A stretch of 64,000 bases of DNA, taken from positions 46,549-110,548 of the forward strand of contig JBCBUC010000009.1 of assembly GCA_039818345.1 (NCBI GenBank). Reading direction: 5' to 3'. The position numbers and the translations under genes are program-made. Shown here piece by piece: positions 11,092 to 53,668 of this stretch; within the stretch, counting starts at the first letter, position 1, and each line of letters begins with the position of its first letter. The notes under the pieces were generated by a model. It was not told the DNA's origin and searched no databases. It was given only the letters and a program-made list of their open reading frames with translations. Origin of the DNA: Pseudomonadota bacterium (GTDB lineage Bacteria > Pseudomonadota > Alphaproteobacteria > Caulobacterales > Parvularculaceae).

Positions 11092-11101
11092 CGTGATCAC
11101 A
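11092..11101. promoter_or_regulatory. Operator candidate CGTGATCACA between gntR and the ALDH gene
   Basis: Seen as caatCGTGATCACAag. Confidence 0.55.
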
Positions 11102-11126
11102 AGCGCCCAACCGCGATGCGGTGGAG

Positions 11127-11864: not shown

Positions 11865-12005
11865 TATTTTTTCCAAGGATGTGATTGGCTTAGCTGTAAT
11901 GCCCGTGCTTACACTGTGGGTATCTGGGGTGCCATCACAAATTCGACAACGGTGACCAAGTCATGCATGCTCCTCTTTGCAAAGCGGGCCATAAGCAAGT
12001 AGGGT

Positions 12006-12046
12006 TGTGATCACGTTTTTGACATTGCTTCATCCCAAGCAATATC
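12006..12046 (+). promoter_or_regulatory. Operator TGTGATCACG (12006-12015) next to a sigma70-type promoter: TTGACA (12019-12024), -10-like GCAATATC (12039-12046)
   Basis: Read directly from sequence upstream of the GS-spuC operon. Promoter assignment is by consensus match only. Confidence 0.55.
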
Positions 12047-20652: not shown

Positions 20653-22560
20653 TTAGAGCATTGAAAGCTCATTGACTGCGCGGTAGGCCGCGTCGATAGC
20701 AGCATCAACATAAGCGGTCGCCTGGCTGTCACTGTTGGCCATCGCGATACGCCCAATCATCGCCCTTCCCTCAATATGAGGTCCCTTTGATGCGCCAAAG
20801 GATGGATCATCTTCGAGCTCATTATATTCGTAGGCGTATCCATGCGGCCATCGGTTGACGGTGATCCCCGCAATATCACGCTCCGCATCAAATCCATAAG
20901 GACCCAGAGCACCAGTTAGCTGTTTGATGATCTCTTGCTCAAAATCGTCAAAGGTCAGCCCATAGAGCTTTTGTCGGCCAATGCGGCTTTGCTCTTTCAT
21001 CGTCAGCCCCAGGCCCGGACTAATCGGTGCATGATGCATCGTCGCGATCATTGGTTCATCTGAGGATGAAGGGTAGAAATAGTCACCCATTGACACGGGA
21101 AAATCGAGCGTGATCGAATGGAAAAAAGAACCTGGGCAGAAGATCCGATAAGTGCCCGCATTTTCAAAGGCGCGCCAGTTCCGTAGCGCTATGTTGGTGT
21201 AAACCAGCGGTGTTTTTTCCGCATACTCAATCGCCTTGCGCTGAGTCTCGGGCATTTGAGGGCAAAGATAGGGCGTGACGCTCGAATAACACGCCATGAC
21301 AACATTTTTTGCTCGAACCCGATGAGCCTCACCCTCTGAGACATAAACAACATCGACACTTCCGTCTTCAGTGTTGCGAACATCCACCGCCGTCGACGAC
21401 AAACGAATACGGACCGCGGCTCCGTCCTGGTCCAGAAGGCCGTAATTCGCCCTCGCGGTCACGACATCTTCCATGGTCGATCCCGGGATGCTGCCTGGGA
21501 TCAGTGATCTGACGAAAAGACGGGCAACACTCGCGTTCCCGTCGGGAAAATGAAAGATATAGGGTTCTTCTTCACCGACCGGCCCATCGGCACCTTCTCC
21601 TAACCCAAGGGCCTGCATCCCAGGCATGCCCAAGCGGTAGCCTTCAAGCGCCGAGAGTGCGTCCCACCCCATCGCCCATATCCCAACAAACTTCCGCCGA
21701 AGGAAGAGTGCTGCTTCCTCCGTGAGGCCCGCATAGGTCTGGACAAAGACCTCGTAGCTGGTTGAACGCATGATCTCGAACTTTTCTTCAAGCGAACGAC
21801 CATCGAGATAGTCCTCAGGGTCAATGACCAGGCGCTCCAGGCTGTTCCGCGACTCTTGGGACAGGGGGAATTGGGCGAGTGAGCTCCTAACTGAATCAAT
21901 ATCGGGCTCCTCACCGAACACCGGATCCAGCTGCGGGACCAAACGATCTTCGCCGTAGCTCTCGGCGTCGAAATAGACATGCTCTAACAGGTCACGATCG
22001 GAGAAGAATGATTGATCATAATACTGATAGAATTTATCTGTATCAATGCCAATTTCACGAATGGTCTTGGCAGCAATGTCAGAATAGCTGCCCGGCGCCT
22101 CGATCGTTTGACTTCCGCCATAACCAATCACCGTTCGTCCATCGATGGTGAACTCGTTACGTTTCGCATGCCCCCCAAAGTCGTCGTGATTATCCAGCAC
22201 CAAAATGCGCGCGTCCTGGCCAAACCGTTCGCGATAGAAGTAGGCAGCCGCGAGACCTGATAAACCGCCGCCCACCACAACGAGATCATAGTCACCGTCG
22301 GTTTGCTCGTCAGGTCGTGCCCATTTGCGTCCTGCCCATGATAATTGGTGGGCGACCTCAAACGAACCGGGATGGCTTCCTCGCATTCCCGTCAATGCCG
22401 GAGGATAAGGCCCGCTCGGTACCGCAGTGGCCGCATCAATGACGTCGACCGGCGCCTCACCACCACATCCAAGAACGCTTAGGGGTGTTGCGCCAACACC
22501 GATAGCGATCGGCAGACCGTTCAAAAAGTCTCGGCGAGAGATCTTGCTTAGCTTTGACAT
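20653..22560 (-). CDS. spdH: Spermidine dehydrogenase SpdH-like, Tat-exported, copy 1 (possible lipoprotein)
   Basis: SRRDFL Tat motif, YPPALTGMRGSHPG, VGGGLSGL, HDDFGGHAKRNEF, YIFHFPDGNAS, RWPHGY. These match the P. aeruginosa SpdH pattern as I recall it. Confidence 0.82.
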   Translation of the reverse strand: MSKLSKISRRDFLNGLPIAIGVGATPLSVLGCGGEAPVDVIDAATAVPSGPYPPALTGMRGSHPGSFEVAHQLSWAGRKWARPDEQTDGDYDLVVVGGGLSGLAAAYFYRERFGQDARILVLDNHDDFGGHAKRNEFTIDGRTVIGYGGSQTIEAPGSYSDIAAKTIREIGIDTDKFYQYYDQSFFSDRDLLEHVYFDAESYGEDRLVPQLDPVFGEEPDIDSVRSSLAQFPLSQESRNSLERLVIDPEDYLDGRSLEEKFEIMRSTSYEVFVQTYAGLTEEAALFLRRKFVGIWAMGWDALSALEGYRLGMPGMQALGLGEGADGPVGEEEPYIFHFPDGNASVARLFVRSLIPGSIPGSTMEDVVTARANYGLLDQDGAAVRIRLSSTAVDVRNTEDGSVDVVYVSEGEAHRVRAKNVVMACYSSVTPYLCPQMPETQRKAIEYAEKTPLVYTNIALRNWRAFENAGTYRIFCPGSFFHSITLDFPVSMGDYFYPSSSDEPMIATMHHAPISPGLGLTMKEQSRIGRQKLYGLTFDDFEQEIIKQLTGALGPYGFDAERDIAGITVNRWPHGYAYEYNELEDDPSFGASKGPHIEGRAMIGRIAMANSDSQATAYVDAAIDAAYRAVNELSML

Positions 22561-26272: not shown

Positions 26273-26602
26273 ATGGCTTATGCCTTTCTCATTGGTGCGA
26301 TTATTTTTGAGGTCGCTGGCACTGCTGCACTCAAACTTTCCGATGGTTTTACCAAGCTTTGGCCATCGTCAATCACCGTTATAGGCTATGGCGCGTCATT
26401 CTATCTCTTGTCCTTGAGTTTACGCACACTGAATGTCGGCTACACCTACGCCATCTGGTCAGCGGTCGGGCTTATTCTACTTGCTCTGATTGGCGCCCTT
26501 TTTATGGACGAGACGGTGGATTTGGCGGGCATATTAGGAATTGGACTGATCGCGGCTGGCGTGATCATCATGAGCGTCTATTCAAAAATGGGCGGCCACT
26601 GA
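26273..26602 (+). CDS. Small multidrug resistance (SMR/EmrE-QacE type) transporter
   Basis: FEVAGTAALKLSDGFTK (Glu14 equivalent), YAIWSAVG, 4 TM, 109 aa. Confidence 0.92.
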   Translation: MAYAFLIGAIIFEVAGTAALKLSDGFTKLWPSSITVIGYGASFYLLSLSLRTLNVGYTYAIWSAVGLILLALIGALFMDETVDLAGILGIGLIAAGVIIMSVYSKMGGH

Positions 26603-33409: not shown

Positions 33410-33913
33410 TTAGCCTTCTTCGTAATAGGCAACGGTGTCGATAACGATCAGCTCACGGTATTCTTCGGTCATATCCCACGTTCCAACAAATCCCTTTGGA
33501 ACCATGAACATGTCACCTTCGCTATAGGTCACCGAATGGCCAGCATCGTCGGTCAGCACAAGTTCGCCTTTGAGAACAACGACGAACTCGTCATAAGGAA
33601 AGGGTTCGTCAATCGCCAATCGCGCAGGGCCAGCATTCCAGACAGAGACGACGTTCTCTCCCTCAAAAATGATGGTCTCGCTGTTTTTCCCGGTACCGCT
33701 TTCGAGGTAAGAGCCTTCCATATCTGGTAAGGCGTCGAGTTCCATCGCGTTCAAACTGTCCATCGTCCATACATCTGGAGGCGGAAAGCCAGAGAGCGTT
33801 GCCGCCTGTGCTGCGGGAACGCCATGAGAAACCAAAGACAGTCCGCCGGCAGCAATTGCTCCGGCTGCGAAAGACATTGAAACCAACGCGAGGTTCGATA
33901 ATCGAAGGGGCAT
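33410..33913 (-). CDS. DUF861/EutQ-like cupin with N-terminal signal peptide
   Basis: Hydrophobic N-terminus ending AQA. Cupin core VWNAGP..DEFVVVLKG..VPKGFVGTW. Confidence 0.8.
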   Translation of the reverse strand: MPLRLSNLALVSMSFAAGAIAAGGLSLVSHGVPAAQAATLSGFPPPDVWTMDSLNAMELDALPDMEGSYLESGTGKNSETIIFEGENVVSVWNAGPARLAIDEPFPYDEFVVVLKGELVLTDDAGHSVTYSEGDMFMVPKGFVGTWDMTEEYRELIVIDTVAYYEEG

Positions 33914-33937
33914 GTTCACACTCTCCCTGTTCACTGC

Positions 33938-33947
33938 CGTGATCACG
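33938..33947. promoter_or_regulatory. Operator candidate CGTGATCACG upstream of the exported cupin
   Basis: About 25 bp upstream of ATG 33913. Confidence 0.55.
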
Positions 33948-34018
33948 ATTTAGGGTAATGGCCACGATGTTCAATGGAAACGACGCGTTCTGAGCAGTCA
34001 GGATAGAAAAACAATGCA

Positions 34019-34056
34019 CAAAAAGGGCCAGCGCTTCTACTAAGAGCGCTGGCCTT
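34019..34056 (-). terminator. Rho-independent terminator of the TBDR gene
   Basis: Stem GGCCAGCGCT/AGCGCTGGCC, followed by a T-run on the minus strand. Confidence 0.8.
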
Positions 34057-34112: not shown

Positions 34113-36575
34113 TTAGAACGCCTTATAAAGGCTCAACCGAATTTCGCGTGGACGAACCGTGAAGACTCGATCGTCTGCGAAACGTGGCCAGATGTAGGTG
34201 ATCGCGCGCTCATCCCAAACGTTGTTGACCGCCAACGAGATCTCCCAATCGTCAGACCTGACACCAAAACTCAGGTCACCGATCTGATAGTCAGGTTGGG
34301 TCGCCGGAATTGCTGAACCAGAGCCGAAGAGCGCAAGGGAGGCAGCCGTACCGTTCACGGACTCTCCGGTGTAAGCGTAATCGAACCGGGTGAAGCCCTC
34401 GAGACCATTCCAAGGCAGGTCCTTGGTGTAAAGAAGACCGGCCGACAGTTTCCAGTTCGGTGTTGCCGGAAGCTCATCGCCTTCGCCGCCAACGACCAGC
34501 GCGCCGCCGCCGATGACGATGTCATCATCAAGCGTCGCATCGATATAGGTTGCAGCCAATGATAGCTCGAGCTCGCTGGTTGGTTTGAAGGCAAACTGCC
34601 CCTCGATACCATCAATCGACGCGTTACCAGCGTTCACAATCGCTGCACCTGCCGCGGGTGCCGGGAAGATCGCTTGGATCTGGAAATCGTTCCAGTTCAT
34701 CATAAACGCGGTGATGTTGGCGATGGCGCGACCGTCAAACCACTGCGATTTAAAGCCAATCTCATAGTTCTTCAGCTTATCAGAACTAAACTCGTTCGGC
34801 CGGATGGCCTGCGCCGCCTGGGTTTGCGCACCACCATTGGCACCGCCGATCCGTACGCCTTCCGAGTACGTAAAGTACGCAAGGAAATCATCCGTGGGCT
34901 CCCAGGTGATGTTCGCTCGACCCGCAAAGTCTTGCGTGGTCTCTGACCCGTCATCGTTGCCGCCCGGCGCCGTGCCCACAAACGTGTCGTTCTCACGAAC
35001 CCTGAAGTCCGTGGTGAACCAACGGCCACCACCTGAAATGTTGATGGTATCGGTAACGTCGATGCCAACCTCGCCGAAGAAGGCGACCGATTCGAGGTCA
35101 CCGCGGTAACCCCAATACTCGTTACCCGGACGACCGTTGTAGGTGAACCCTTCGCGGAAGCCTTGGTCGAACCACACGTCAGTGGGCTCAACGCCATAAT
35201 AGGCGAAGATCTCGCCGTTCGGTCCACCAAACTCAGCGAAGTCATCAACCCGGCTGATATAGTCCCAATCGTTGTTGGTGTTCTCATAGAACGCACCAAC
35301 GAGCCAGCTGAACCGGCTGTCGCTGTCTTCACTCGATGTGAGACGAACTTCTTGCACGAAAGAATTCACGCGCTGATCAAGCTCAATCACGCCGGTCGGG
35401 TTGGGGCCAAAGTCGTTATAATTGACAAAGCAGATGTAGAGATACGCACAGGTCGCATATTCGGGGAACTCAGCGACGCCCGTGTAATACTCTGCAATCG
35501 CCAGACCATTATCACGATAGTTGGTCATGTAAGCGGTGGAGTCGATATCGTAATCGATCGTCCGATTGTGCCAGCCGCCAGCGATTGTCAGGTCAGCAAA
35601 ACCGAGGTCACCCTGTACGGTGATCGACGTGTTGTACCATTCATCATCACGACGCTCGTCTTTGAACTTGATCGTGTTCAGATCACCGAAATCAGGATTG
35701 AAGTCGAACAGATTGTCGAGGCTTGAGTTTTGGTAGATGACCCCAACGTCGATCGTCCAGTCATCATTTGGCTGATAACGGACCGTCGCGCGGCCGCCCT
35801 CGCCGCTGTAATCGTTGATGTCGTCTTCGACCTGATCGGCGTTATCGCGCGTGCCATTGTTCGGTGAATAAGCTGACGTCGTACCGAGGACGTTATCAAT
35901 GTAACCACCCTCATACTCGTAAAAGCCAACGAGTCGGATGGCGAGCTTGTTCTCAATGATCGGGATATTGACCGCACCACTGATGTCGTAGCTCTCTTCG
36001 CCGTCCTTGGTCGTCGCTGCGCCAACATTCACCCAGCCCGAAAAACCGCTGGTGTCAGGCTTTGCGGTCACAATTTTCAAGGTACCGGACTGTGAGCCAG
36101 CGCCATAAATCGTGGGTTGCGGACCGGAAAGCGCCTCGATGCGTTCGATATCGATCAAACGCACATCAGGGTTCTGGCCATCGCGCGTGATGGGGATTTC
36201 GTCGAGATAGAGGATCGACGAACTGATCGTGTCAAAACCAGTCGGTTGGGCCAGTGCACCACGGAAGGCAATCGTCGTCGCGCCTGGAGATGATGTACCG
36301 AACGAAACGCTCGTCAGTTCCTTGGCGTAGTCTTGGAAGTCCCGAAGGCCCTTCTCGCGAATATCATCGCCGTCAAACGCCTGAACCGCGAGTGGGACAT
36401 CTTGGAGGCTCTGCGCTCTCTTACGAGCGGAGACGATCATCACATCGAGCGCTGTGCCGTCGTCATCCTCAGCAGCCACGGCCTGCGCCACAGCGCCCGT
36501 CGGCACCACCACGATCGACGACATCGCAAGCAGGGAAACACCCAATGCCCATGCGGATTTCGAACGAGTTTCCAT
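34113..36575 (-). CDS. TonB-dependent outer-membrane receptor
   Basis: Signal peptide (AVA-QA), TonB-box-like DVMIVSARKR, plug motif DIERIEALSGPQPTIYGAGSQSG, C-terminal Phe (LYKAF). GGAGG SD before ATG 36575. Confidence 0.95.
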   Translation of the reverse strand: METRSKSAWALGVSLLAMSSIVVVPTGAVAQAVAAEDDDGTALDVMIVSARKRAQSLQDVPLAVQAFDGDDIREKGLRDFQDYAKELTSVSFGTSSPGATTIAFRGALAQPTGFDTISSSILYLDEIPITRDGQNPDVRLIDIERIEALSGPQPTIYGAGSQSGTLKIVTAKPDTSGFSGWVNVGAATTKDGEESYDISGAVNIPIIENKLAIRLVGFYEYEGGYIDNVLGTTSAYSPNNGTRDNADQVEDDINDYSGEGGRATVRYQPNDDWTIDVGVIYQNSSLDNLFDFNPDFGDLNTIKFKDERRDDEWYNTSITVQGDLGFADLTIAGGWHNRTIDYDIDSTAYMTNYRDNGLAIAEYYTGVAEFPEYATCAYLYICFVNYNDFGPNPTGVIELDQRVNSFVQEVRLTSSEDSDSRFSWLVGAFYENTNNDWDYISRVDDFAEFGGPNGEIFAYYGVEPTDVWFDQGFREGFTYNGRPGNEYWGYRGDLESVAFFGEVGIDVTDTINISGGGRWFTTDFRVRENDTFVGTAPGGNDDGSETTQDFAGRANITWEPTDDFLAYFTYSEGVRIGGANGGAQTQAAQAIRPNEFSSDKLKNYEIGFKSQWFDGRAIANITAFMMNWNDFQIQAIFPAPAAGAAIVNAGNASIDGIEGQFAFKPTSELELSLAATYIDATLDDDIVIGGGALVVGGEGDELPATPNWKLSAGLLYTKDLPWNGLEGFTRFDYAYTGESVNGTAASLALFGSGSAIPATQPDYQIGDLSFGVRSDDWEISLAVNNVWDERAITYIWPRFADDRVFTVRPREIRLSLYKAF

Positions 36576-36647
36576 CACTGCCTCCATGCGAGTCGTTACG
36601 ACCCGGTCACGCCCCTAATCGGCTTTTGTGAACCACAAAGAGTTAAA

Positions 36648-36657
36648 CGTGATCACA
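36648..36657. promoter_or_regulatory. Operator candidate CGTGATCACA in the divergent TBDR / hydroxylase intergenic region
   Basis: Seen as aaaCGTGATCACAatt. A spacer variant TTGTG-AAC-CACAA lies at 36626-36638. Confidence 0.6.
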
Positions 36658-36862
36658 ATTCAGTGGTGTTGGATAGAGTGTTCACGGGCATGTGTACCCA
36701 ATCGATGACCAAATGTGGCAATTTCACAACAACGATAATCCAGGATCGGCCAAAGAAAACGGCTTGAGGGCCGCTTCTGGTCAGTCATGGCTTGGCGATT
36801 GACATGATCGGTCAAGGCGGCACAGACTCCTCAGAGGCAGTTGAAAACGTAGCGGATTTGGC

Positions 36863-37426
36863 ATGGATATCGGCGTTCCGATCAAGGACCTAGGAGCGGT
36901 CAACTCGGAGGCTTTGCGGGAAACGATCTTGTCCTTTGAAGACTCCGTCTGGCGCGAAGAACAGCTTCGTCAAAAAAAATTCGACGAGGTCCATCAAGAC
37001 ACTGAATCGGTGATCATGATCTTTTGTGACCATGACAACTGGCCGAATATCGACCTTATCAAGGGGTCAGGTTGGGACCGGATGGCCGATCATGCACTGC
37101 CGCTGATGCATAGCATTATCGAAGAGCACTACGCCAAGGGCGGGACGATCATTCGAGCGATGGCCGCGAAACTCAAAGCAGGCAGCACCATCACCACCCA
37201 TACCGACCAGCACACGTCGTTTCATCAGGGTCATCGCATCCACGTACCGATCACCACAAACAACAAAGTCCGCTTCATGATCGATGGACGCCCCTACAAA
37301 ATGCACCCGGGGAGCGCCTATGAGATCAACAACCAAAAGCGCCACGGCGTGATTAACAGGGGTGAGGAAGACCGGATCACCTTCATTTTCGACTACGTTC
37401 CGGGCTCCAACGCCGTTACCGCTTAG
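36863..37426 (+). CDS. Aspartyl/asparaginyl beta-hydroxylase-like Fe(II)/2OG oxygenase
   Basis: HTD (HxD), RIHVPITT, EINNQKRHGVIN (distal His), DRITFIFD. Confidence 0.85.
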   Translation: MDIGVPIKDLGAVNSEALRETILSFEDSVWREEQLRQKKFDEVHQDTESVIMIFCDHDNWPNIDLIKGSGWDRMADHALPLMHSIIEEHYAKGGTIIRAMAAKLKAGSTITTHTDQHTSFHQGHRIHVPITTNNKVRFMIDGRPYKMHPGSAYEINNQKRHGVINRGEEDRITFIFDYVPGSNAVTA

Positions 37427-37436
37427 GTTTCTCGCC

Positions 37437-38366
37437 ATGACAGCATTGATCGCAACATCCGTCGTGCGCGGATCCGACCAAGGTGAAAGCCACGGCGGCG
37501 TTTATCTTGTTAATCTCGATAGTGACGACGTCTTGCAGCCCGTTGACTGGGACACCATAGACATTGATTGGCAGGGCCGGGGCTGGGACAGGGGCCTGCG
37601 CGGCATCGCCTTTCATGACGAGCACATCTATATTGCCGCGAGTGACGAGCTTTTCGTTTTCAACCAAGCGTTCGAGATCGTCGCTTCATACAGGAACCAA
37701 TACCTCAAACACTGCCATGAGGTAAGTATTCACGGCCAGCACTTGTTCGTTGTCTCAACGGGTTTTGATTCCGTTTTGGGGTTTAATCTTCATACCAAGA
37801 CCTTTGATTGGGGATTGCACATCAAGTCAGATGGTCTGATTTTCCGTGCAGGACGGTACGATCCAAATGGCGACAAAGGCCCCCTCCTCCTCAACAAACT
37901 GCATCTCAATAATGTCCACTGCGATGAAGGCGGTATGTATATCAGCGGTATACGAACGGGTGCTCTACTGAGATTTAACGGAAAAGCCGTGGGTGTGATG
38001 ACGACCCTACCTGAGGGCATTCATAACGCACGTCCTTTTCGTGACGGTGTGCTGCTCAACGACACACAATCCGATGCCGTCCGATTCGAGGGCCCAGCTG
38101 GCCGCGCTGCGTTCCGTACGCCGCGCTTTGCGCCGCATAAACTGACCCACACCAAGCTTGATGACTCGCGGATCGCGCGGCAAGGATTTGGTCGCGGGCT
38201 TTGCGTCATCAGTGACAACGAAATCGCCGCGGGCTCTTCGCCCTCGACGATTTCGATCTATGATTTGACGACGCAAAAGGCCAAAAAGGCGATCAACTTG
38301 TCACTCGATGTGCGTAATGCCATCCATGGCCTTGCGGTTTGGCCGTTTGCCTGGCCTGATCATTAG
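37437..38366 (+). CDS. Hypothetical beta-propeller protein (TIGR03032/DUF4915-like)
   Basis: Repeated blades GLRGIAF, HCHEVS, LHLNNVH, GIHNARP, GFGRGLC, AIHGLAV. Confidence 0.7.
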   Translation: MTALIATSVVRGSDQGESHGGVYLVNLDSDDVLQPVDWDTIDIDWQGRGWDRGLRGIAFHDEHIYIAASDELFVFNQAFEIVASYRNQYLKHCHEVSIHGQHLFVVSTGFDSVLGFNLHTKTFDWGLHIKSDGLIFRAGRYDPNGDKGPLLLNKLHLNNVHCDEGGMYISGIRTGALLRFNGKAVGVMTTLPEGIHNARPFRDGVLLNDTQSDAVRFEGPAGRAAFRTPRFAPHKLTHTKLDDSRIARQGFGRGLCVISDNEIAAGSSPSTISIYDLTTQKAKKAINLSLDVRNAIHGLAVWPFAWPDH

Positions 38367-40396
38367 ACTGACTGAAGCGATTTGGGCCGCTGCTCATTCG
38401 GCAGGTCGAGCAAAACTGGCTCCAAAAAATCAATCAGTTCTTCAAGCTGCTCTTCGTAATGGCGCCACAGATTGACCGAGCCCTTATAGATCGGTTGACG
38501 CACCTGCTCCGAACTCGCCGTTTTCACCGCCCTTTTGGTTTCGTGATAGCGGAGCATCGAGTCTTCAAAGACCAGACCGCAGTGCTCAGCAATCCGCATG
38601 ACGTTGGCTTCGAGGTTTTCCACCACGTCCTCATACTGAACGGTGAGCACCTTACCCGGCAAAACATCATTCCAATGATCGATCATCCGCACATACTGGG
38701 CGTAGTAGTGCGCGAGATCGTAAAAATCATAGGAAAACACTTGCCCCCTCGCAAAGAGCTGCTTGAACGTCCCCAAACAGCTATCGAGCGGGTGCCTGCG
38801 GGCATCGATCACCTTTGCGTTGGGTAGGATCGTGTGCAAAAATCCGATGCCGGTGAAGTTGTTTGGAAGCTTATCGGTAAAATAGGTCGCACCCGTCCGA
38901 TGCGGCAGCGTGTTCTCTATATATTCTTTGCCAAGATCTTCAATCTGATAGGGCGTGAGCTCATGCATACACTCTGGGTATTTGATGCCGTCGACCCTGT
39001 TAAACCCCGTCTCGGTGGCCAACCTTAGAAGGTAATGAAGTTCCGCAGTCCCCTCCACCTCCGAATGACTGGCGAGGATCTGTTCGAGCAAGGTCGAACC
39101 AGATCGCGGCAAGCCCACAATGAGGATCGGCGAGGCGTCGGAACATCCTTGCCCCGCATGTTTTTCGAAAAAATCCTTGGAGAAAACATCGATGATCCGA
39201 TCGTTCATTTTCTCAAATTCGATCGGATCGTACTGAACCTTCAGGCGTTTTTTCTCGTTGCCACGAGCGTAGTAATCAAACGCCTGAACGTAGTCTTTGC
39301 GGTCCTCATAGGCTTTCCCGAGCGCAAAAGAGAATGAAATCGCCGAGTCTTCGCCAGCGGGTATTTTCGCAACTTCCGCCAGCTGACTTTTCATGTCCTC
39401 CACTTCGTCATCATCAAATCGGAAGGTTTTGAGGTTGGCGAGGCTCCAATAAACTTCACCGAAATCAGGCTTCGAGTCGGCACACCGCTTGTAGGCATCG
39501 ATTGCTTCGTCCTGGCGACCAATCGTCTTCAGCGCATGCCCAAGACAGAGGAGCGAGGGGAAATGCTTTTCGTCAATGGCCAAGGCTTGGTCGAGCCAAT
39601 TGACTGCATCATCAAGCTGTCCCGCATTCATGCTGTTGGCGCCGAGTTTCTCGAGGACGTGTACGGATTTCGGCCTGACCTTCAATGCACGCTTGAAGGC
39701 AGCCTCCGCCTTATCGAATTTTTGTTGATCGTTGAGCGCCGAACCAAGATTAATCCATGCCGCCCAGTAATCAGGCGCCACCTCAACAGCTCGGCGGAAA
39801 AACGCCTCGCCATCGTTGAAGTTTTCCTTCCTGACACAGAGGACACCCATCAGGCGTAGCGCATCGACGTTCTCAGGGTCCCGGCGAAGAATGCCGCGAT
39901 AGATAGCCTCGGCCTTCGCGGTATCGCCTTTGCGGTTGAGCTCCATCGCCTCAACGAGGGCCTGCCGATCAGGATTGTTGTCGAGATATTGCTGGAAGAT
40001 TTCGTCCGCCTCGATGCCGCGCCCCGCAACCGCGAGCAACTCGCCCAAACGTTGGTTCGCGCTGGTCAATGAGGGGTCTCGCTTGACCGCCGCTTGCAGT
40101 GACTTCACCGCCTCATCGGTCTTGCCTTGGCGGATTTGGGCATCGGCCAAATTTTCATAAACAGGTGCAAAATCGGGCATCAATCTCGTCACATGGACGA
40201 AGGCCCGTTCAGCTTCCTCCAACCGGCCAAGTCGAGTGAGTGACACCCCCAACATCCGCAGTAAGTTCGGATCGTTAGGGTGCTCCTTCAACGAACCGCG
40301 CAAAAAAGCTTCCGCCTTATCGGCGGCGTTGGCTTGGATCATCCGCACCGCCATCTCGAAGTCTCGCCGGGCTGTTTCGTTGCGTTGAAGCGACAT
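38363..40396 (-). CDS. TPR-repeat protein with C-terminal PAPS-dependent sulfotransferase domain
   Basis: About 9-10 TPR-like helical pairs, 5'-PSB loop GLPRSGSTL, FTDKLPNN, 3'-PB RHPLDSC, TASSEQVR. Confidence 0.92.
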   Translation of the reverse strand: MSLQRNETARRDFEMAVRMIQANAADKAEAFLRGSLKEHPNDPNLLRMLGVSLTRLGRLEEAERAFVHVTRLMPDFAPVYENLADAQIRQGKTDEAVKSLQAAVKRDPSLTSANQRLGELLAVAGRGIEADEIFQQYLDNNPDRQALVEAMELNRKGDTAKAEAIYRGILRRDPENVDALRLMGVLCVRKENFNDGEAFFRRAVEVAPDYWAAWINLGSALNDQQKFDKAEAAFKRALKVRPKSVHVLEKLGANSMNAGQLDDAVNWLDQALAIDEKHFPSLLCLGHALKTIGRQDEAIDAYKRCADSKPDFGEVYWSLANLKTFRFDDDEVEDMKSQLAEVAKIPAGEDSAISFSFALGKAYEDRKDYVQAFDYYARGNEKKRLKVQYDPIEFEKMNDRIIDVFSKDFFEKHAGQGCSDASPILIVGLPRSGSTLLEQILASHSEVEGTAELHYLLRLATETGFNRVDGIKYPECMHELTPYQIEDLGKEYIENTLPHRTGATYFTDKLPNNFTGIGFLHTILPNAKVIDARRHPLDSCLGTFKQLFARGQVFSYDFYDLAHYYAQYVRMIDHWNDVLPGKVLTVQYEDVVENLEANVMRIAEHCGLVFEDSMLRYHETKRAVKTASSEQVRQPIYKGSVNLWRHYEEQLEELIDFLEPVLLDLPNEQRPKSLQSV

Positions 40397-40517: not shown

Positions 40518-40719
40518 CGTGATCACACCGTAACCTTGACTGCTCCCTAGTAAGATGCGGCGAAGCTCTATGCATGTCATCAGAACGTTGAATTCGCTCA
40601 TTTCCGATGTATTGAGAAGCGCTCGATCACGCCCTCAATTGCTCGTTTCGTGAATTGGCAGAATGCGATCACGATTGCCGAAAAAGTGGCGTATTCTCTT
40701 GCAATTGTGATCACGATTG
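40518..40719. promoter_or_regulatory. Cluster of operator candidates: CGTGATCACA (40518), TGCGATCACG (40664, one mismatch), CAATTGTGATCACGATTG (40702-40719)
   Basis: In the divergent sulfotransferase / membrane-protein intergenic region. The last site is an 18-bp near-perfect palindrome. Confidence 0.65.
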
Positions 40720-40871
40720 ACCTAGCCTGCTAGCAATCTTGTCGGAGAGACCGAACCAACGAGCAGCGTACGTGTTGGTGATCATGAGGTCCTCGTTCAC
40801 GGGAAAGCGCATCTGAATTGCAAGTTCGATCTACACCAACCAAGCCGACCGAACTGTCCATCGAATCGGTG

Positions 40872-41708
40872 ATGGCGTTTCTTCAAAGAAATGGCTTCTT
40901 GATATTCAAATGGACCGTGTACTCCTTGTTGCTGGTCAACGTGGTGTATTATGCGCATGAGGATTGGACCGTCGCTCAACACACGCTGACCGAAGGGGCT
41001 TCAATACTCAAGATTTTATCTGCCTACGCAGCATCGCTCGATGTTTTCGCCTGGATGATGCTGATTTTCATCTATGAGGTGGAGACCTATTGGCTGGAAG
41101 ACGACTTCGACAACTCGATCGTGCTTGGCGCAATGACGATAGGGAAATTGTTGTTTGCTGCGCTCATCATCCAGACAATTTATTCGTACTCCGTGCTGGT
41201 TCTCCAGATACCAGGAACCTCTGTGATTGAAGGCGTCACCGACCTTTGCGCGCTTACAGGACAGGATCTCTCCTTCGTTCGCAACTTAAAGTATACGGAG
41301 ATCACACCGGAAACATGTGGCGCGATTGCTTATTCTGGTGATCTCTACCTCTTTTCCCAATACCCAATCGTCACTGATCTGCCTGGGTTCCGCGAGAATT
41401 CCTTCTTAGAAGTGTTCGACCTTGTCGAAGCGGTGACGTGGTTGATTATTCTCGCGCTCACCGAGCTAAGTGTCCGTCTTCAAACGAAGGGCCATTACAA
41501 AGGCGCCGTGGTGATGTGGGACTTCCGGCTGCGGGTCGTGGGCTATCTCATCTTGTTGCTCGTGAGCGTTTATTGGGGCGTCAAAGGCCATTTCGTTTAT
41601 GTCTGGGATGAGCTGCTTTGGATCACCAGTTTTATTGCACTTGAAAACAACCTGAACGAATGGCGCCAAGAGCTACGGGAGGCTGACGAGACCGCAGCGG
41701 CGGACTAG
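40872..41708 (+). CDS. Hypothetical multi-pass membrane protein
   Basis: About 6 hydrophobic segments and a large loop with two Cys. No family recognised. Start uncertain (40818 or 40872). Confidence 0.8.
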   Translation: MAFLQRNGFLIFKWTVYSLLLVNVVYYAHEDWTVAQHTLTEGASILKILSAYAASLDVFAWMMLIFIYEVETYWLEDDFDNSIVLGAMTIGKLLFAALIIQTIYSYSVLVLQIPGTSVIEGVTDLCALTGQDLSFVRNLKYTEITPETCGAIAYSGDLYLFSQYPIVTDLPGFRENSFLEVFDLVEAVTWLIILALTELSVRLQTKGHYKGAVVMWDFRLRVVGYLILLLVSVYWGVKGHFVYVWDELLWITSFIALENNLNEWRQELREADETAAAD

Positions 41709-41787
41709 GGTCCTCGGGTTCTAGTTCTGCCTCGGTCGGTGTCAGAGCAAGACGATAGATATCTTTTCTCTCTCCGTTTTCGTCAGC

Positions 41788-43539
41788 ATGTTTATCTTCT
41801 TTGCGGTCGGCAATTTTGCTGGCCGTACGGTGAAGAATGCAGACGATTATTTCGTTGCTGGGCGCCGGGCACCGACGATATTGATCCTTGGTACCTTGGT
41901 TGCGAGCGTATTCAGCTCGACGATCTTCCTTGGCGAGGCGGGCTTTACCTATGACGGCCAAATGGGGCCGTATATGCTCTTTCCGGGGATCACGACCGCC
42001 GGGTACATCTACGGCGCGCTTCTGTTTGGGCGATATCTGAGACGCAGCCGCGCGCCAACGGTGGCGGAGTTTTTTGGCCAACGCTTTAACAGCCGGCGGG
42101 TGCAGCAGCTTTCTGGGGCGATCATCATCGGTGCATTGAGCATTTATTTGCTTGTGGTGACACAAGGCGGCGCCCTTCTGCTCTCCGACCTGACCGGCCT
42201 TTCCTACACGCAAAGCCTGGTTACCGCCTGGCTCGCCTACACGTTTTTTACGATCTATTCGGGTTCGAAAGGGGTGATCCTTACCGACACGCTGATGTTT
42301 CTCCTGTTCGCGGTGGCGACAGTGGCATTCTCCGTGGTCATCATTGGCGATTTAGGCGGTGTTTCGACAGCGATCGAGCAGATGGCGCAGATCGAGACGA
42401 AGCCTGATATCGCGTCATGGCACGGTATCGTCGGTGTTGGGACTGAATGGGCAACCCCGATCGATTACCTGATCTGGGCCATCACAATCGATATGGCCTG
42501 GAGCGTGGTCTACGCGGTGAGCCCCTGGCAGTCGAGCCGCCACCTTATGGCTCGCAATGAACATGTCGTGATCCGTGCGTCGATTTACACCGCCCTCGCC
42601 GTGATTCTCTTGCAAGCGCTGATTTACGGTGTGGGCGGCTTGATTAACCTCTACAATCCGAACATCACCCCATCAGAGACGGCCATGATCTGGGCGGCAA
42701 AAAATCTTGTTCCGGATTACCTCGGAGCGATCTTACTCGCAGGAATCATGGCCGCAGCCCTTTCCTCAGCATCAACCTTTCTCTCGCTCGTCGGATTCAG
42801 CGCGAGCAACGACATTCTTGCCCGAAAACGACCATTGAACATCCGGACAACGCGTATCTTGATGCTGATTGTTGGTGCTGTGGCGCTGATCACCAGCTTT
42901 TTCTTCCCGCCCAATATTTTCTGGCTGATGCTGTTCGTTGGCACGGTGTTCACGTCGTCATGGGGACCTGTTGCGTTCATGAGCGTGTGGAGCAAACGGA
43001 TTACCGCGGACGCTGCATTTTGGGGCATGGCCACCGGATTTCTCTTCAACGTCGTTCCGTCCGGTCTCGAATATGTCGGCATCATCGATTTGCCTCACTA
43101 TTTCAGTGCAACGATTATCGGTGTGGCAGCTAGCCTCATTACCATCGTGTTGATCTCACGTGCTGGTGAAGTGACAGTCGAGGAAACTGCGTTCAGGCTT
43201 CGCCTTCATGAAACACCGAGCGAAGATCGCGACGCGACCAAGGCGCGAACAACAATGATCGCGGCCTTTGCTTTGGTCGCCTACGGTCTGACAATGCCAT
43301 TCCTAACACTGCGATTTTACGTTATGCCCTATCAACGCGGTGCCGGAGAGCTTGCGGCCGATGGCGGGATCAATTGGCAAACAGGCGAAGCTCTTTTGGC
43401 GCTCACGTCACCGCTCATCTATGTTCCACTCGGCCTTTACGGCGCATACTTGATTTGGCGAGGCTACCACCCCCGCGCGGCGAAACCGCACGATCAGAAC
43501 CCTGGGTTCAGTGAGGAGCTCTCTGGTGAAAAGACGTAA
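41788..43539 (+). CDS. Sodium:solute symporter (SSS) family transporter
   Basis: DDYFVAGRRAP, GIMAAALSSAST, ~13-14 TM. The true N-terminus may extend to 41755. Confidence 0.92.
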   Translation: MFIFFAVGNFAGRTVKNADDYFVAGRRAPTILILGTLVASVFSSTIFLGEAGFTYDGQMGPYMLFPGITTAGYIYGALLFGRYLRRSRAPTVAEFFGQRFNSRRVQQLSGAIIIGALSIYLLVVTQGGALLLSDLTGLSYTQSLVTAWLAYTFFTIYSGSKGVILTDTLMFLLFAVATVAFSVVIIGDLGGVSTAIEQMAQIETKPDIASWHGIVGVGTEWATPIDYLIWAITIDMAWSVVYAVSPWQSSRHLMARNEHVVIRASIYTALAVILLQALIYGVGGLINLYNPNITPSETAMIWAAKNLVPDYLGAILLAGIMAAALSSASTFLSLVGFSASNDILARKRPLNIRTTRILMLIVGAVALITSFFFPPNIFWLMLFVGTVFTSSWGPVAFMSVWSKRITADAAFWGMATGFLFNVVPSGLEYVGIIDLPHYFSATIIGVAASLITIVLISRAGEVTVEETAFRLRLHETPSEDRDATKARTTMIAAFALVAYGLTMPFLTLRFYVMPYQRGAGELAADGGINWQTGEALLALTSPLIYVPLGLYGAYLIWRGYHPRAAKPHDQNPGFSEELSGEKT

Positions 43540-45448
43540 CACTGATCATTATCTTGGGATGGACCGTGCGATCACGCGCCGGGACTTTGTCCATGGGGCA
43601 AGCCTTCTAGCTAGCGGTACAATGGCGGCCAGCGCTTTCGGTGGAAGCCTGGCGCGCGACGGTGGGCCGGCCACCTATCCTCCGGCCATGACAGGCCTGC
43701 GCGGTAATCATGTTGGGTCTTTTGAAGTCGCCCACCAACTGGGCCGCGAAGGTCGCACCGATTGGAGGACCCCGACCAAACCCAGCGAAGACTATGATCT
43801 TGTGGTTGTCGGCGGCGGCCTCAGCGGGTTGTCTGCCGCCTATTTTTTCCTCCAGGACAATCCATCAGCAAGCATCCTTATTCTCGATAATCATGATGAT
43901 TTCGGCGGCCACGCGAAACGCAACGAGTTTCAGATCGGTGATCGCACTTTGATCGGGTACGGCGGAAGTCAAACTCTGCAAGAACCTTCCGGGTACAGCG
44001 GCATCGTCAAAAAGCTTTTGCGGGATCTCAGCGTTGATGTGGATCGGTTTGAAACCGCCTATGATCAAGACTTCTATAAGCGCAACGGACTAAGGGGTGG
44101 CCTGTTCTTCGGCGAGGAAAGTTGGGGCGAGAACCGAACGATACCATTCGATATCGGTTACTTCACTGACTATATTCCGGTGGCCCCGTCAGACATGACC
44201 GCCGATGAAGCAGTTAAGCTGATCCCTGTTTCAGATGAAGGGCGCACGGAGTTGCTCCGTCTTCTAAACCTCAAAGAGAACCTGCTGACGAGTGTTCGAG
44301 GCGAAGACGAACTTTGGGAATTTCTCTCAAACATCAGCTACCGTGACCTGCTGACGAAGCATTTTGGCATCGGTCATCCCGACGTGCTCCGTGTTTTCCA
44401 AGACCTCACCGGGGACGCTGGTGCCGGAATAGATTCTGTGACGGCCGCGACCGCGCTTTATTACACCGGCCTTCCTGGGTGGGAAGCTGCAGGTCTTCCC
44501 CAGGCCGAGGCGACAGAACCTTATATTCATCACTTCCCGGATGGAAATGCATCCGTCGCACGACTTTTGGTGCGGGCCATGATCCCGGGTGTTGCACCCG
44601 ACGGAACGATGGACGAACTCGTGACCACACGGTTTGACTATAGCAAACTTGATGTGGCGGACTCTGCTGTCCGTCTACGGCTTGAAAGCACCGTGGTTCA
44701 TGTGGAGCATGACGGAGATCCCGCGACATCAGAGCGCACGCTCGTCAAATACATGAAAGACGGTCAAGGCTTTCTCATCAGTGCAACGAATTGCGTTCTC
44801 GCCTGTAACCATTCAATCGTCCCCTATTTGTGCCCCAGCCTTCCCAAGTCTCAACGCGAAGCTCTGTCATTCCAGGAAAAAACACCTATCCTCTACACGA
44901 GCGTCGCCCTAAGCAATTGGCGAGCATGGAAAGAGCTCGGGATCGGCGCCGTTGTTGCTCCGAGCAGTTACTATGTGCACGCATTGCTCGATTTTCCTGT
45001 CAGCATGGGAGACTATTCATTCTCTGCGAATCCGGACGAACCGATTATCGTCCATATGGAACGTTTTCCGCATTTGTATGATCAAGACCTATCGGTACGC
45101 GAACAACACCGCCTTGGCCGCTATCAATTGTTGGGCACACCGTACGAGACGATCGAACGCAACACCAGGGCTCAACTCGCTGGCATGCTCGGAGAAGCAG
45201 GATTTGATCCTGCTAAGGATATTCAAGGGATCACTGTCAATCGCTGGGCACACGGATATGCCTATTATTACTCCCCGCTGTTTGATGAGATGTATGACGA
45301 TTGGGACGATGCACGGTACCCGCACATTCAGGCGCGGCAACCTTTTGGTCGCATAGCCTTTGCGAATGCTGATTCCGCCGCTAACGCGATGTTCGAATCA
45401 GCTGTCGAAGAAGCCCACCGAGCCGTCTCCGAACTCAAGTCTCGATAG
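43526..45448 (+). CDS. spdH: Spermidine dehydrogenase SpdH-like, Tat-exported, copy 2
   Basis: TRRDFV Tat motif, YPPAMTGLRGNHVG, HDDFGGHAKRNEF, YIHHFPDGNAS, RWAHGY. GTG 43526 with GAGGAG SD. Confidence 0.8.
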   Translation: MKRRNTDHYLGMDRAITRRDFVHGASLLASGTMAASAFGGSLARDGGPATYPPAMTGLRGNHVGSFEVAHQLGREGRTDWRTPTKPSEDYDLVVVGGGLSGLSAAYFFLQDNPSASILILDNHDDFGGHAKRNEFQIGDRTLIGYGGSQTLQEPSGYSGIVKKLLRDLSVDVDRFETAYDQDFYKRNGLRGGLFFGEESWGENRTIPFDIGYFTDYIPVAPSDMTADEAVKLIPVSDEGRTELLRLLNLKENLLTSVRGEDELWEFLSNISYRDLLTKHFGIGHPDVLRVFQDLTGDAGAGIDSVTAATALYYTGLPGWEAAGLPQAEATEPYIHHFPDGNASVARLLVRAMIPGVAPDGTMDELVTTRFDYSKLDVADSAVRLRLESTVVHVEHDGDPATSERTLVKYMKDGQGFLISATNCVLACNHSIVPYLCPSLPKSQREALSFQEKTPILYTSVALSNWRAWKELGIGAVVAPSSYYVHALLDFPVSMGDYSFSANPDEPIIVHMERFPHLYDQDLSVREQHRLGRYQLLGTPYETIERNTRAQLAGMLGEAGFDPAKDIQGITVNRWAHGYAYYYSPLFDEMYDDWDDARYPHIQARQPFGRIAFANADSAANAMFESAVEEAHRAVSELKSR

Positions 45449-51271: not shown

Positions 51272-52138
51272 TTATGCATCCGTTTCATCCACTCTTCGCC
51301 GGATGTCGAGCAATCGTGAAAATTGTTCGACGATCAGTGGTGCCTCGTCGAGGGCCGTGATCACCGTCAAAACATAAGCAATAGCGGCAAAAACATCGCC
51401 GACCTGCGCGCCGAGCTCCGCCGTCACCCGCAAAATTACCAGCATCACAGCCACAAAAATAAAGAGATCCGCCACGGCCCAGGCGCCCGCCTGGACATCG
51501 GAAAGCATAATCCTCCAACGGGCTAAGGCCCTGAAATGCTTGAAAACACGCGCGGGACGCCCGCTTTCAATCGCACTCACTTCCCGCTCATGGCGGTCGT
51601 TCAAGCGCCGACTGAGCGCAAGGGAGCGTCGACCGTAAAGAAAATAGACAACGAAAACAGGGATCAATGCCAACGCCATCGCGGCACCTGCGATGGTATC
51701 GTACAAAAACAGCATGGCGACCCCGCCAATCAGGCTGATCAACGCTGTGACGAAGGCTGGCACCTCAAACTCAAAAAAATCAACGGCTTCGCGCGTCATC
51801 ACCGAACGGGCAGCGACCTCTCCGGTCGTCACGCCGGCCTCGCGCTGCCGCACAATCATGCGTCCCGCCACATCGCCATACATTTTCGCAAAAAGGCGGG
51901 TGTCAAAAACCTGGCGCGCGGTCGCCGTCACCAATTGAAAGAACCAAATCCCCGCAAAGGGCAGCAAGCTCACGATCCCATCGCCAGCGATCAAACCGTT
52001 GATCGCAAGGCCGATCGTGAACGGATAGAGAAGCTCGAAAACATTTTCGAGCAACATCACGGTGTAGGTCGCACTGACTTGCAGGCGGTATGGCTTCACC
52101 GCCCCAAAAAAAGTCTGTGGTTCGTCTCTTCCATCCAT
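51272..52138 (-). CDS. Stand-alone ABC-type six-TM domain protein (no ATPase domain)
   Basis: LYPFTIGLAINGL, RQVFDTRLF, VDFFEFEVP, LNDRHEREV. No Walker motifs. Confidence 0.7.
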   Translation of the reverse strand: MDGRDEPQTFFGAVKPYRLQVSATYTVMLLENVFELLYPFTIGLAINGLIAGDGIVSLLPFAGIWFFQLVTATARQVFDTRLFAKMYGDVAGRMIVRQREAGVTTGEVAARSVMTREAVDFFEFEVPAFVTALISLIGGVAMLFLYDTIAGAAMALALIPVFVVYFLYGRRSLALSRRLNDRHEREVSAIESGRPARVFKHFRALARWRIMLSDVQAGAWAVADLFIFVAVMLVILRVTAELGAQVGDVFAAIAYVLTVITALDEAPLIVEQFSRLLDIRRRVDETDA

Positions 52139-52215
52139 CTGATCGCCCCGAATATCCGTGCCAGGATCGACGTTACGCCCCTCTAGGGCGTGGCTCGCAA
52201 AAAGGCGAGACCCCC

Positions 52216-53424
52216 TTAGGACGCGTCAGCGAGGGCGGGGATAATCTGGCGGAGCCGCAGATACATATAGCCGTAGATCGACATCGCCGTCAGCGATGCG
52301 ACCGCTGACATCAAAAAGACCGAGCCATAGCCAAGGCCAAACCCCAAGATTGAGGCGGCAATGTTCGGCCCGAGGATCTGACCAAACCCGACCGCTGCAG
52401 GCATCAGCGCCGCATAGCGGCCAGACTTATCAACGTTCGCCACGGTCGCGGACTGATAAACATCGATGAAGATCCAAAGGAAGTTGAACATAAAGAGGCT
52501 GATAACAATATTGATGTTGTTGATGCCGAAAGCCAGCATACCGACGATCACCGCGTGACTGACCAGCGTGATCAAGAGCGGCCTCGCTAATCCATAGCGA
52601 TTGCTGATCACGGTCGCGACCAAACAGCCGACAATGCTCAAGAAGGATGCCCAGACCAGAACGCGTCCGACCCAGTCAGGGTCAGTTACCGGAGACGCCA
52701 AACTGGCAAGTTCGATATAGGTCCAATACGCCCCAATATTGACATACGTGGCCGCGATCGCGGCGAGGCACAGCCAAGGCACATAGGCGGGAACGACAAC
52801 ACTGGTGCTCGATCGTTGGCCGGTGTGATCCACCTCTTCGACCTCGACATCCAAACCCGTCGTCGATGCCCTTGCAGGAAGCCAAGACAGGAACGGAAGG
52901 GCTGCGAGATTAAACGCAACGAACACGAAGTATATACCGTTTATCGACAACTGCGGCAGGACCTGGAGCTCAAAGGCCTGGGAAAACGCAAAGATAAACA
53001 GCATAATATTGTACGCGCGTGCTGGTCGGGACGTTGCCCCGAGCGACGCGACCGCGATCGCGGTGTAGATACCGCTCCCAAACCCTGCGATCAGCCTTAA
53101 GAAGAGAACTGCTCCGTATTCGACAAAGATCATACAAAGGCCGTTGGCAGCCACTGTTGTTGCAATCGCGCCCGCGACCAGCCATCGCCGGTTGAGCCGC
53201 CGAATGAGTAGCGATGCGAAAACAGCGCCCACGGAGAGACCACCGAGATCCGCGCCAGCAACGCGCCCTACTTGCATTTCTGTAAAACCTAGTTGCGTGA
53301 CCCAAGCAGTACTGATCACCGGAATTCCAACGAGCACCCCGTAACCGACAATCGCAAGGTAAAGGGAAATTGAGACCGCACGCCGATCATCAAACTCTGT
53401 CTTGCGATGCGCGATTGAAGCCAT
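52216..53424 (-). CDS. MFS transporter
   Basis: About 12 TM, motif-A-like IRRLNRRW, RLIAGFGSG. Start uncertain (53424, 53448 or 53502). Confidence 0.88.
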   Translation of the reverse strand: MASIAHRKTEFDDRRAVSISLYLAIVGYGVLVGIPVISTAWVTQLGFTEMQVGRVAGADLGGLSVGAVFASLLIRRLNRRWLVAGAIATTVAANGLCMIFVEYGAVLFLRLIAGFGSGIYTAIAVASLGATSRPARAYNIMLFIFAFSQAFELQVLPQLSINGIYFVFVAFNLAALPFLSWLPARASTTGLDVEVEEVDHTGQRSSTSVVVPAYVPWLCLAAIAATYVNIGAYWTYIELASLASPVTDPDWVGRVLVWASFLSIVGCLVATVISNRYGLARPLLITLVSHAVIVGMLAFGINNINIVISLFMFNFLWIFIDVYQSATVANVDKSGRYAALMPAAVGFGQILGPNIAASILGFGLGYGSVFLMSAVASLTAMSIYGYMYLRLRQIIPALADAS

Positions 53425-53668
53425 GTCGCTGGTCACTGAATACTCCATCCGCAAGAACGCCATCGGGCGCGCCCACTCTGCTATAACCGCTCCGTGAGCC
53501 ACCCATCACCATCAAGAGGCTCACCAACGATCATGCCTTCGCCAACCATTGAAAATTACCGCGTCCTGTGATGGAAGAATCGAGAACAATGAAGACTTGC
53601 AATCAACGCACCTTGGGTCAACTCAATCAGTTGAACAAAGCGCCTGCGATATATTGAGGAACAAAACG

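Follow-up and report, generated by a model that had tools for sequence, protein, structure and literature searches.

A TonB-dependent receptor gene within an island of amine-breakdown genes

We analyzed a 64,000-nucleotide stretch of an alphaproteobacterial genome (Caulobacterales, Parvularculaceae; GenBank assembly GCA_039818345.1, contig JBCBUC010000009.1, positions 46,549 to 110,548), hereafter the window, with a focus on a TonB-dependent receptor (TBDR) gene that lies in an island of genes assigned to amine breakdown. The receptor gene, the proposed regulator, and the associated DNA elements are listed below in window coordinates.

34113-36575, minus strand: TBDR gene, 820 amino acids from the ATG at 36575 (Pfam, translation, AlphaFold2 model, Foldseek)
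34017-34054, minus strand: predicted intrinsic terminator after the TBDR gene, a 10-bp GC-rich stem followed by a U-run (dG -24.3 kcal/mol, z -4.8)
36645-36660: putative operator palindrome with core GTGATCAC at 36649-36656 and AT-rich flanks, between the TBDR gene and a divergent hydroxylase gene
33939-33946: operator copy at the cupin gene, overlapping its listed GTG start
40519-40526 and 40707-40714: two operator copies between the sulfotransferase gene and the transporter operon
11127-11876, minus strand: GntR/FCD regulator gene with operator copies on both sides (10988, 11093, and 12007; region 10988-12014)

The reading frame at 34113-36575 (minus strand) is predicted to encode a complete member of the TonB-dependent receptor superfamily, belonging to a family without prior study. 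An alternative ATG at 36587 would give an 824-amino-acid open reading frame (34113-36587, minus strand); the start at 36575 appears better, because GGAGG lies 5 nt upstream of it and a 97%-identical database protein is 820 amino acids long. Pfam places the Plug domain (PF07715) at residues 61-169 (47.9 bits against a cut-off of 23.9) and the β-barrel (PF00593, TonB_dep_Rec) at residues 421-790 (112.7 bits). The N-terminus comprises a signal-like segment ending in AQA, an acidic stretch, and then LDVMIVSA, which is TonB-box-like by motif reading only; model confidence is low across the N-terminal 65 residues. The C-terminus (...YKAF) ends on an aromatic residue, Phe. An AlphaFold2 model built with 70 homologues (pLDDT 84.8, pTM 0.84) contains a plug and, after residue 183, 22 long strands connected by short periplasmic turns and long outer loops. 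Foldseek retrieved 290 PDB matches for this model at E ≤ 0.001; all those listed are TBDRs, with FyuA first, and the best fold matches (FyuA, FhuE, Fiu, and PiuA) share 13-16% identity at TM-scores of 0.6-0.7 by query. Substrate assignment from solved structures was attempted and set aside, as phmmer aligns the plug alone (FyuA, Cir) and the Foldseek matches are generic TBDRs at this low identity. The terminator hairpin stands behind the receptor stop codon, and the receptor gene is therefore predicted to form a single-gene transcription unit. Two TonB_C matches above cut-off are encoded in the genome.

The initial annotation had named iron or B12 regulation of the receptor as a sign that would speak against an amine role, and such regulation was rejected insofar as it can be read from the DNA. 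The best Fur-box match at the receptor promoter (11/19) is background among the promoters of the 29 TBDR genes in this genome, an Irr ICE box was not found there, and no Rfam family, including the cobalamin riboswitch, reached its gathering score anywhere in the window. The Pfam scan returned neither an STN domain in the receptor nor a sigma/anti-sigma pair nearby. Matches to the siderophore (TIGR01783, 94 against a cut-off of 223.5 bits), heme (TIGR01785, 61.6 against 316.85 bits), and BtuB equivalog (TIGR01779, 29.9 against 599.7) models fall far below threshold.

A palindrome shared by the receptor and amine operons

The GTGATCAC core stands ~70 nt upstream of the receptor gene, and this copy bears out the earlier description of the receptor as "operator-bearing." Nine copies occur in the window, compared with 1.15 in shuffled sequence, and seven of the nine are intergenic with AT-rich flanks. 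The intergenic copies front the genes for the TBDR, the hydroxylase, the sulfotransferase, the cupin, and GntR, as well as the operon encoding the three-repeat membrane protein, SSS symporter, and SpdH homologue, the GS-AT-GNAT-AO-GcvT operon, and the AldDH-GS-GATase-DAO operon. The raw count is weak because the genome holds 197 copies (~3.8 per 64 kb); the signal is the intergenic, AT-flanked placement. The AT-flanked subset clusters at two places in the genome, namely this island (five) and a second amine island on contig C27 (six; C27:10000-36000, L072 and L073). The C27 island encodes a GntR paralogue (56% identity), its own TBDR behind a P450 gene, an SpdH paralogue, a GS-like ligase, two aldehyde dehydrogenases, a transaminase, a molybdopterin oxidoreductase, an MFS transporter, and an AMP-binding enzyme.

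The arrangement extends to other Alphaproteobacteria. In four alphaproteobacterial TBDR orthologues the core precedes the gene by ~70 nt, and in a further three by 160-220 nt. GntR orthologues (49-65% identity) are encoded in all four tested alphaproteobacterial genomes with the palindrome upstream of the TBDR gene, and none was found in one tested alphaproteobacterial metagenome-assembled genome (MAG) whose TBDR gene lacks the palindrome. Moreover, all five GntR loci inspected have the palindrome as a flanking element (that of the window and those of four other alphaproteobacterial genomes). Because GntR orthologues track palindrome-bearing TBDRs and their loci are flanked in this way, the GntR/FCD protein is likely an autoregulated repressor, with the receptor gene as a member of its regulon. 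A sigma-70 promoter scan of the region upstream of the receptor gave no match, so the operator cannot be placed relative to the promoter.

The GTGATCAC core is absent from gammaproteobacterial TBDR loci. There, another common element, CCTATAGGnnnGGA, lies upstream of the TBDR gene in 26/33 loci and recurs upstream of homologues of orf318 (a membrane protein described below) and of the three-repeat, GS, SSS, and DAO proteins. A longer, asymmetric conserved form, CCTATAGGnnnGGA(A/T)GTTT, was identified in L028-L071 some 170-190 nt ahead of the TBDR tblastn match; it may act as promoter, operator, or 5' leader.

Recurrence of the receptor with amine genes in two bacterial classes

The receptor orthogroup is delimited at 53-69% identity, with the next sequences at 48%, 43%, and then about 40% and below. 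Scanning species-representative genomes yielded 46 loci, 39 with a full-length TBDR orthologue, from Kordiimonadaceae, Erythrobacter, Sphingomonadales, Halieaceae, and other Pseudomonadales (i.e., both Alpha- and Gammaproteobacteria). Island-type amine genes (AO-alpha/beta + GcvT, SpdH-like, GS, DAO, three-repeat, SSS, and AptA-like transaminase) were counted over the available flank of each locus, up to 10 kb. At least one such gene lies near the receptor orthologue in 27 of the 39 loci, or in 33 when orf318 is counted, and the loci with amine genes display at least six gene orders. As a baseline, 3 of the 28 other TBDRs of this genome are near amine genes. Window genes outside the island do not recur in orthologous TBDR loci.

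No TBDR orthologue was found in 22 same-genus genomes (best match 36%). The island is present in one of them, G010, on a 9,040-bp contig that ends past the sulfotransferase gene and before the expected place of the receptor, and for this reason the lack of a receptor there was not treated as informative. With no orthologue among the 22 genomes and the island in G010 alone, the island is accessory and was probably acquired.

A three-gene cassette accompanies nearly every orthologue.

36863-37426, plus strand: Asp/Arg-hydroxylase-like cupin (PF05118), beside 38/39 TBDR orthologues
37362-38366, plus strand: propeller-like protein with no Pfam or NCBIfam match, beside 37/39 TBDR orthologues
38363-40396, minus strand: TPR + Sulfotransfer_3 protein (Pfam), beside 38/39 TBDR orthologues

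Paralogues of the TPR-sulfotransferase follow two other TBDRs of the genome (C17:71382-75847 and C6:24670-28730; 38% and 27% identity, respectively), and neither pair lies close to amine genes; the sulfotransferase has the look of an accessory gene of TBDRs in general. The cassette may act in receptor or substrate modification or may belong to a separate metabolite.

Predicted amine-breakdown enzymes and SpdH homologues

Based on Pfam and NCBIfam scans, the island encodes three GS-like ligases of the PauA/PuuA kind (under the curated cut-off), a PuuD-like amidotransferase, two DAO-family oxidases, a PuuC-like aldehyde dehydrogenase (613 against a cut-off of 850 bits), and, both above cut-off, a methylmalonate-semialdehyde dehydrogenase and an AptA-type omega-transaminase. 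A second class-III transaminase, a GNAT protein, and a PhyH-family protein are also present, together with two CrtI-like alpha/beta pairs, each accompanied by a GcvT-like protein, and a stand-alone paralogue. At the island edge are genes for the oxidation of formaldehyde and formate. Two flavocytochromes of the SpdH family complete the set.

43511-45448, plus strand: SpdH-family flavocytochrome FAD645, Tat motif TRRDFV, in the same operon as the SSS gene
20653-22560, minus strand: second SpdH-family paralogue FAD635, Tat motif SRRDFL, possible lipobox

By phmmer, residues 20-642 of FAD645 align with residues 2-619 of Pseudomonas aeruginosa SpdH (7D9F/7D9G; E 1.3e-151). SpdH cuts spermidine and spermine at the secondary amine (PMC9397018), and its heme-ligand histidines, His54 and His562 (PMC12564564), are conserved in the motifs FEVAHQ and NRWxHGY of the SpdH homologues. 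Both island enzymes align with the P. aeruginosa protein over the full length and share both heme histidines and the N-terminal RRDF. A periplasmic polyamine-cleaving step is thus a probable product of the island, which makes an outer-membrane entry route relevant. Partnership with a TBDR is not described for the P. aeruginosa enzyme in PMC9397018 or PMC12564564, whereas in this genome each of the four SpdH paralogues has a TBDR within about 12 kb. A search of 40 relatives recovered SpdH homologues from only two genomes: G010, which carries the same island, and G039, whose copy is 1.8 kb from an unrelated TBDR (G039:C14:437140-443191).

The SpdH-like gene at C32:16303-18162 in this genome adjoins a TBDR of another clade. 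The match contains an in-frame TAG and is missing the FEVAH heme-ligand motif, and this copy may be a pseudogene or a variant.

Inner-membrane transport and the absence of a Pot system

The window encodes several candidate inner-membrane carriers, including the SSS, MFS, and SMR transporters named in the initial annotation (Pfam/NCBIfam).

40818/40872-41708, plus strand: three-repeat membrane protein, candidate inner-membrane uptake partner of the SSS symporter (pair at 40818-43539)
41788-43539, plus strand: SSS symporter (PF00474, TIGR00813)
52216-53502, minus strand: MFS transporter (PF07690)
26273-26602, plus strand: SMR family protein (PF00893)

The three-repeat/SSS pair recurs beside the cassette in four other loci (L026, L027, L037, and L043). 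The same annotation had noted that no potABCD- or potFGHI-type genes accompany the amine genes and had called for a search of the rest of the genome. That absence holds for the window and, upon searching the 3.36-Mb, 99%-complete genome, extends to the whole: no PotA reached the cut-off (best 240 against 355.6 bits), and neither did any APC permease of the PuuP/PotE kind. The best PotA-like ATPase belongs to the genome's sole SBP_bac_8 system (C28:16800-22300, L010), SBP_bac_8 being the one binding-protein family surveyed genome-wide. Besides the ATPase, this system has a binding protein and a permease with two fused domains, and a gene for a YbiX/PiuC-type Fe(II) dioxygenase comes next. Below threshold, it matches 2-aminoethylphosphonate (the best for the binding protein), molybdate, and sulfate systems. 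We read it as an iron- or phosphonate-type importer, probably one for ferric iron. Since neither a Pot system nor an APC permease is found at cut-off in a genome with about 30 TBDRs and two TonB matches, the missing Pot may reflect an ABC-poor, TBDR-rich lifestyle.

The proposal that the receptor and secondary carriers operate "instead of" a Pot ABC system stands as to the absence of Pot but needs correction as to the membrane. The receptor stands in for porin diffusion across the outer membrane, not for the inner-membrane Pot ABC transporter.

Adjoining the MFS gene is a gene for an ABC_membrane_3 (PF13748) protein without an ATPase domain (window 51272-53502, minus strand, for both). The pair is kept beside the cassette in an Erythrobacter MAG (L027; 63% and 68% identity).

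Proposed role of the receptor and competing explanations

We consider the chances slightly better than even that the receptor provides the outer-membrane entry of an amine utilization locus, most likely of polyamine type, organized like the carbohydrate utilization systems containing TBDRs (CUT) and polysaccharide utilization loci (PUL). In such a scheme, the substrate would cross the outer membrane through the receptor in a TonB-energized step, and the two Tat-signal SpdH homologues would then carry out oxidative C-N cleavage in the periplasm; their family, heme ligands, and Tat motifs are directly visible, and their activity and location would follow from these. The products would traverse the inner membrane through the SSS/three-repeat pair, the MFS transporter, and perhaps other carriers. 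In the cytoplasm, enzymes with family assignments to gamma-glutamylation, transamination, aldehyde oxidation, and FAD/GcvT-type N-dealkylation, some scoring under curated cut-offs, would complete the breakdown. The operator sites and their conservation are observed, and through them the GntR/FCD repressor would act on the AT-flanked GTGATCAC copies at the receptor promoter and at least six other promoters. Co-localization of the kind seen in CUT/PUL loci is evident here, and the operator sites suggest co-regulation.

A functional tie of the receptor to amine genes, rather than to iron or B12, is supported by the shared operator, the association across two bacterial classes, and the lack of a Fur box, Irr box, or riboswitch. 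The genome shows no competing uptake route, as neither a Pot ABC system nor an APC polyamine permease reached cut-off. The initial annotation had envisaged high-affinity scavenging of a dilute or large polycation, based in part on acidic, aromatic-rich loops and a Cys pair in the receptor. The link to amines is supported by genomic context; the loop argument proved generic. The features are present (loop composition of 15.1% DE, 4.7% KR, and 13.6% FWY; YATCAYLYIC with both Cys in L4, the largest outer loop, residues 350-398), and the Cys pair is kept in all ten aligned members at ≥56% identity, but they are not distinctive. All 29 TBDRs of the genome have a pI of 4.05-5.0, this receptor comes 13th among them in net negative charge, and 2-5 Cys are present in many. 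Acidity, aromatics, and Cys count lie within the range of the other 28 TBDRs and were therefore rejected as evidence for a polycation ligand. A dilute or large polycation is best treated as a hypothesis, one whose plausibility is raised by the two Tat-signal SpdH homologues. What would make a TBDR worthwhile is a substrate that is either very dilute or beyond the size limit of porins.

Several points weigh against the proposed amine role. Putrescine and spermidine are porin-sized, and a TBDR is not required for them. The ligand cannot be read from the receptor sequence or model, the loop chemistry and Cys pair are ordinary for this genome, and the closest solved structures, which are siderophore receptors, are uninformative on substrate. 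The GS-like proteins and the PuuC-like dehydrogenase fall under their curated cut-offs. The sampled species are related, so locus counts such as 27 of 39 overstate independence. The cassette is bound to the receptor (37-38 of 39 loci) far more tightly than any amine gene, and in six species, including Parahalioglobus pacificus and a Congregibacter MAG, it occurs with no amine gene within 10 kb. In these two genomes, the extended gammaproteobacterial element occurs once, at the TBDR gene; it was accordingly dropped as a regulon marker for cassette-alone genomes, there being no link to amine genes.

A more specific version, to which we assign a low probability, is that the locus serves polyamines that are large or N-methylated, for instance the long-chain kind found in the silica of diatoms and sponges. 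The receptor would import oligomeric polycations exceeding porin size, from which the periplasmic SpdH-type flavocytochromes would yield di- and triamines. These pieces would enter through secondary carriers, and the FAD/GcvT modules would pass N-methyl groups to the folate/formate pathway encoded at the island edge. If true, the locus would be the first example of TonB-dependent uptake of an organic polycation, as well as a bacterial recycling route for biosilica-associated nitrogen.

The strongest alternative, though itself doubtful, is that the receptor serves its own cassette. The cassette, with its PAPS-type sulfotransferase, would make or modify a hydroxylated or sulfated small molecule or peptide for import, possibly siderophore- or signal-like, or would modify the receptor, and the amine genes would owe their frequent proximity to the mobile marine catabolic islands that house both. 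The near-constant company of cassette and receptor speaks for this explanation, as do the six loci with the cassette alone, the upstream element confined to the TBDR in P. pacificus and the Congregibacter MAG, and the sulfotransferase paralogues beside two other TBDRs. TBDR-linked dioxygenase (and sulfotransferase) neighborhoods have also been predicted to make siderophore-like metabolites (Iyer et al. 2010, PMC2938197). However, no NRPS, NIS, or precursor-peptide gene was detected, either among the window genes scanned with Pfam or among those called in three loci, and no Fur or Irr box marks the receptor. The receptor and catabolic promoters have operators in common in two bacterial classes, via two different motifs, and amine genes are far more frequent than at the baseline TBDRs (27/39 versus 3/28).

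It is improbable that the receptor imports a non-amine nutrient, with its position and upstream palindrome being coincidental. With about 30 TBDRs in the genome, some would fall near any island, GTGATCAC occurs 197 times, and no feature of the receptor sequence indicates a ligand. Yet the association recurs in 27-33 of 39 species, with several gene orders and in two classes, the ~70-nt operator spacing is equal in the window and in four alphaproteobacterial orthologues, and the C27 island repeats the combination of TBDR, GntR, operator, and amine genes. An ordinary iron-siderophore, heme, or B12 receptor is very improbable, given the scores far below subfamily cut-offs and the missing Fur, ICE box, riboswitch, STN, and sigma/anti-sigma signals, even though the best NCBIfam matches are siderophore and heme subfamilies, the best folds are those of FyuA, FhuE, Fiu, and PiuA, and some source annotations read "iron complex outer membrane receptor."

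Relation to known systems

Known TBDR substrates comprise iron chelates, B12, sugars, some metals, and a few aromatics. A full-text literature search recovered no report of a TBDR for polyamines or other organic cations and nothing relevant on bacterial catabolism of long-chain polyamines. The receptor described here is a good candidate for energy-driven import of amines across the outer membrane. Polyamines make up a significant share of dissolved organic nitrogen in the sea, and their uptake has so far been attributed almost wholly to PotD-type ABC systems, as in SAR11 (PMC8437039). The occurrence of the receptor orthogroup in at least 39 marine species together with SpdH/amine-oxidase genes, in genomes without Pot, points to a second uptake strategy, which would typify TBDR-rich, ABC-poor bacteria such as Halieaceae, Erythrobacteraceae, and Kordiimonadaceae. 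The locus also offers a context for working out the widespread TBDR-linked sulfotransferase/hydroxylase cassette.

The closest functional analogue appears to be the sux CUT locus of Xanthomonas, which encodes the SuxR repressor, the SuxA TBDR, the SuxC MFS symporter, and the SuxB enzyme (PMC1790865, PMC12798719). Like sux, the island combines in one locus a putative substrate-specific repressor, a non-iron TBDR, a secondary inner-membrane carrier in place of an ABC system, and catabolic enzymes. Its substrate class, however, would be amines rather than sugars, and its periplasmic step would be oxidative (SpdH-type) rather than glycosidic; the regulator is of the GntR/FCD type instead of LacI, and the hydroxylase/propeller/sulfotransferase cassette is additional. 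PotABCD/PotFGHI and PuuP/PlaP/PotE answer the same need and feed catabolism of the Puu/Pau type; these are inner-membrane systems, none of which is in the genome, and it is the SSS, MFS, and three-repeat proteins, not the TBDR, that would substitute for them. The solved siderophore TBDRs (FyuA 4EPA, FhuE, Fiu, PiuA, and FptA) share the plug and 22-stranded barrel, whereas likeness in sequence is confined to the plug, no iron-regulation signal is present here, and the loops of this receptor are much longer (820 versus about 650 amino acids).

The cassette recalls neighborhoods described by Iyer et al. (2010, PMC2938197), in which a TBDR stands beside a hydroxylase and a P-loop sulfotransferase with patchy distribution in Alpha- and Gammaproteobacteria. 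Those neighborhoods are built around JmjC/2OG enzymes, tryptophan halogenases, and SapC, and a biosynthetic role was assigned to them; by contrast, the cassette here consists of a PF05118 cupin, a propeller, and a TPR-sulfotransferase under a putative catabolic operator.

Additional recurrent neighbors

Two further genes of the island recur with the receptor.

33410-33946, minus strand: Cupin_3 gene downstream of the TBDR gene, with a listed GTG start
54681-55637, plus strand: orf318 (P0122), polytopic membrane protein with no Pfam family

The Cupin_3 start is probably the ATG near 33911, because the operator copy overlaps the listed GTG. A Cupin_3 homologue also follows the receptor in L024/L026, L029, and L037. 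The gene orf318 is the commonest non-cassette neighbor of the receptor orthologues (20/39 loci) and, in several gammaproteobacterial loci, carries the CCTATAGG element and lies directly upstream of an SpdH-like gene. A weak Atlas lead to a heme ferric-reductase/MsrQ-like partner, a role that would favor an iron reading of the receptor, was rejected, as 24 orthologues share no conserved His; Trp, Tyr, and Arg are abundant among the conserved residues. The protein may partner SpdH in the membrane or act as a carrier.

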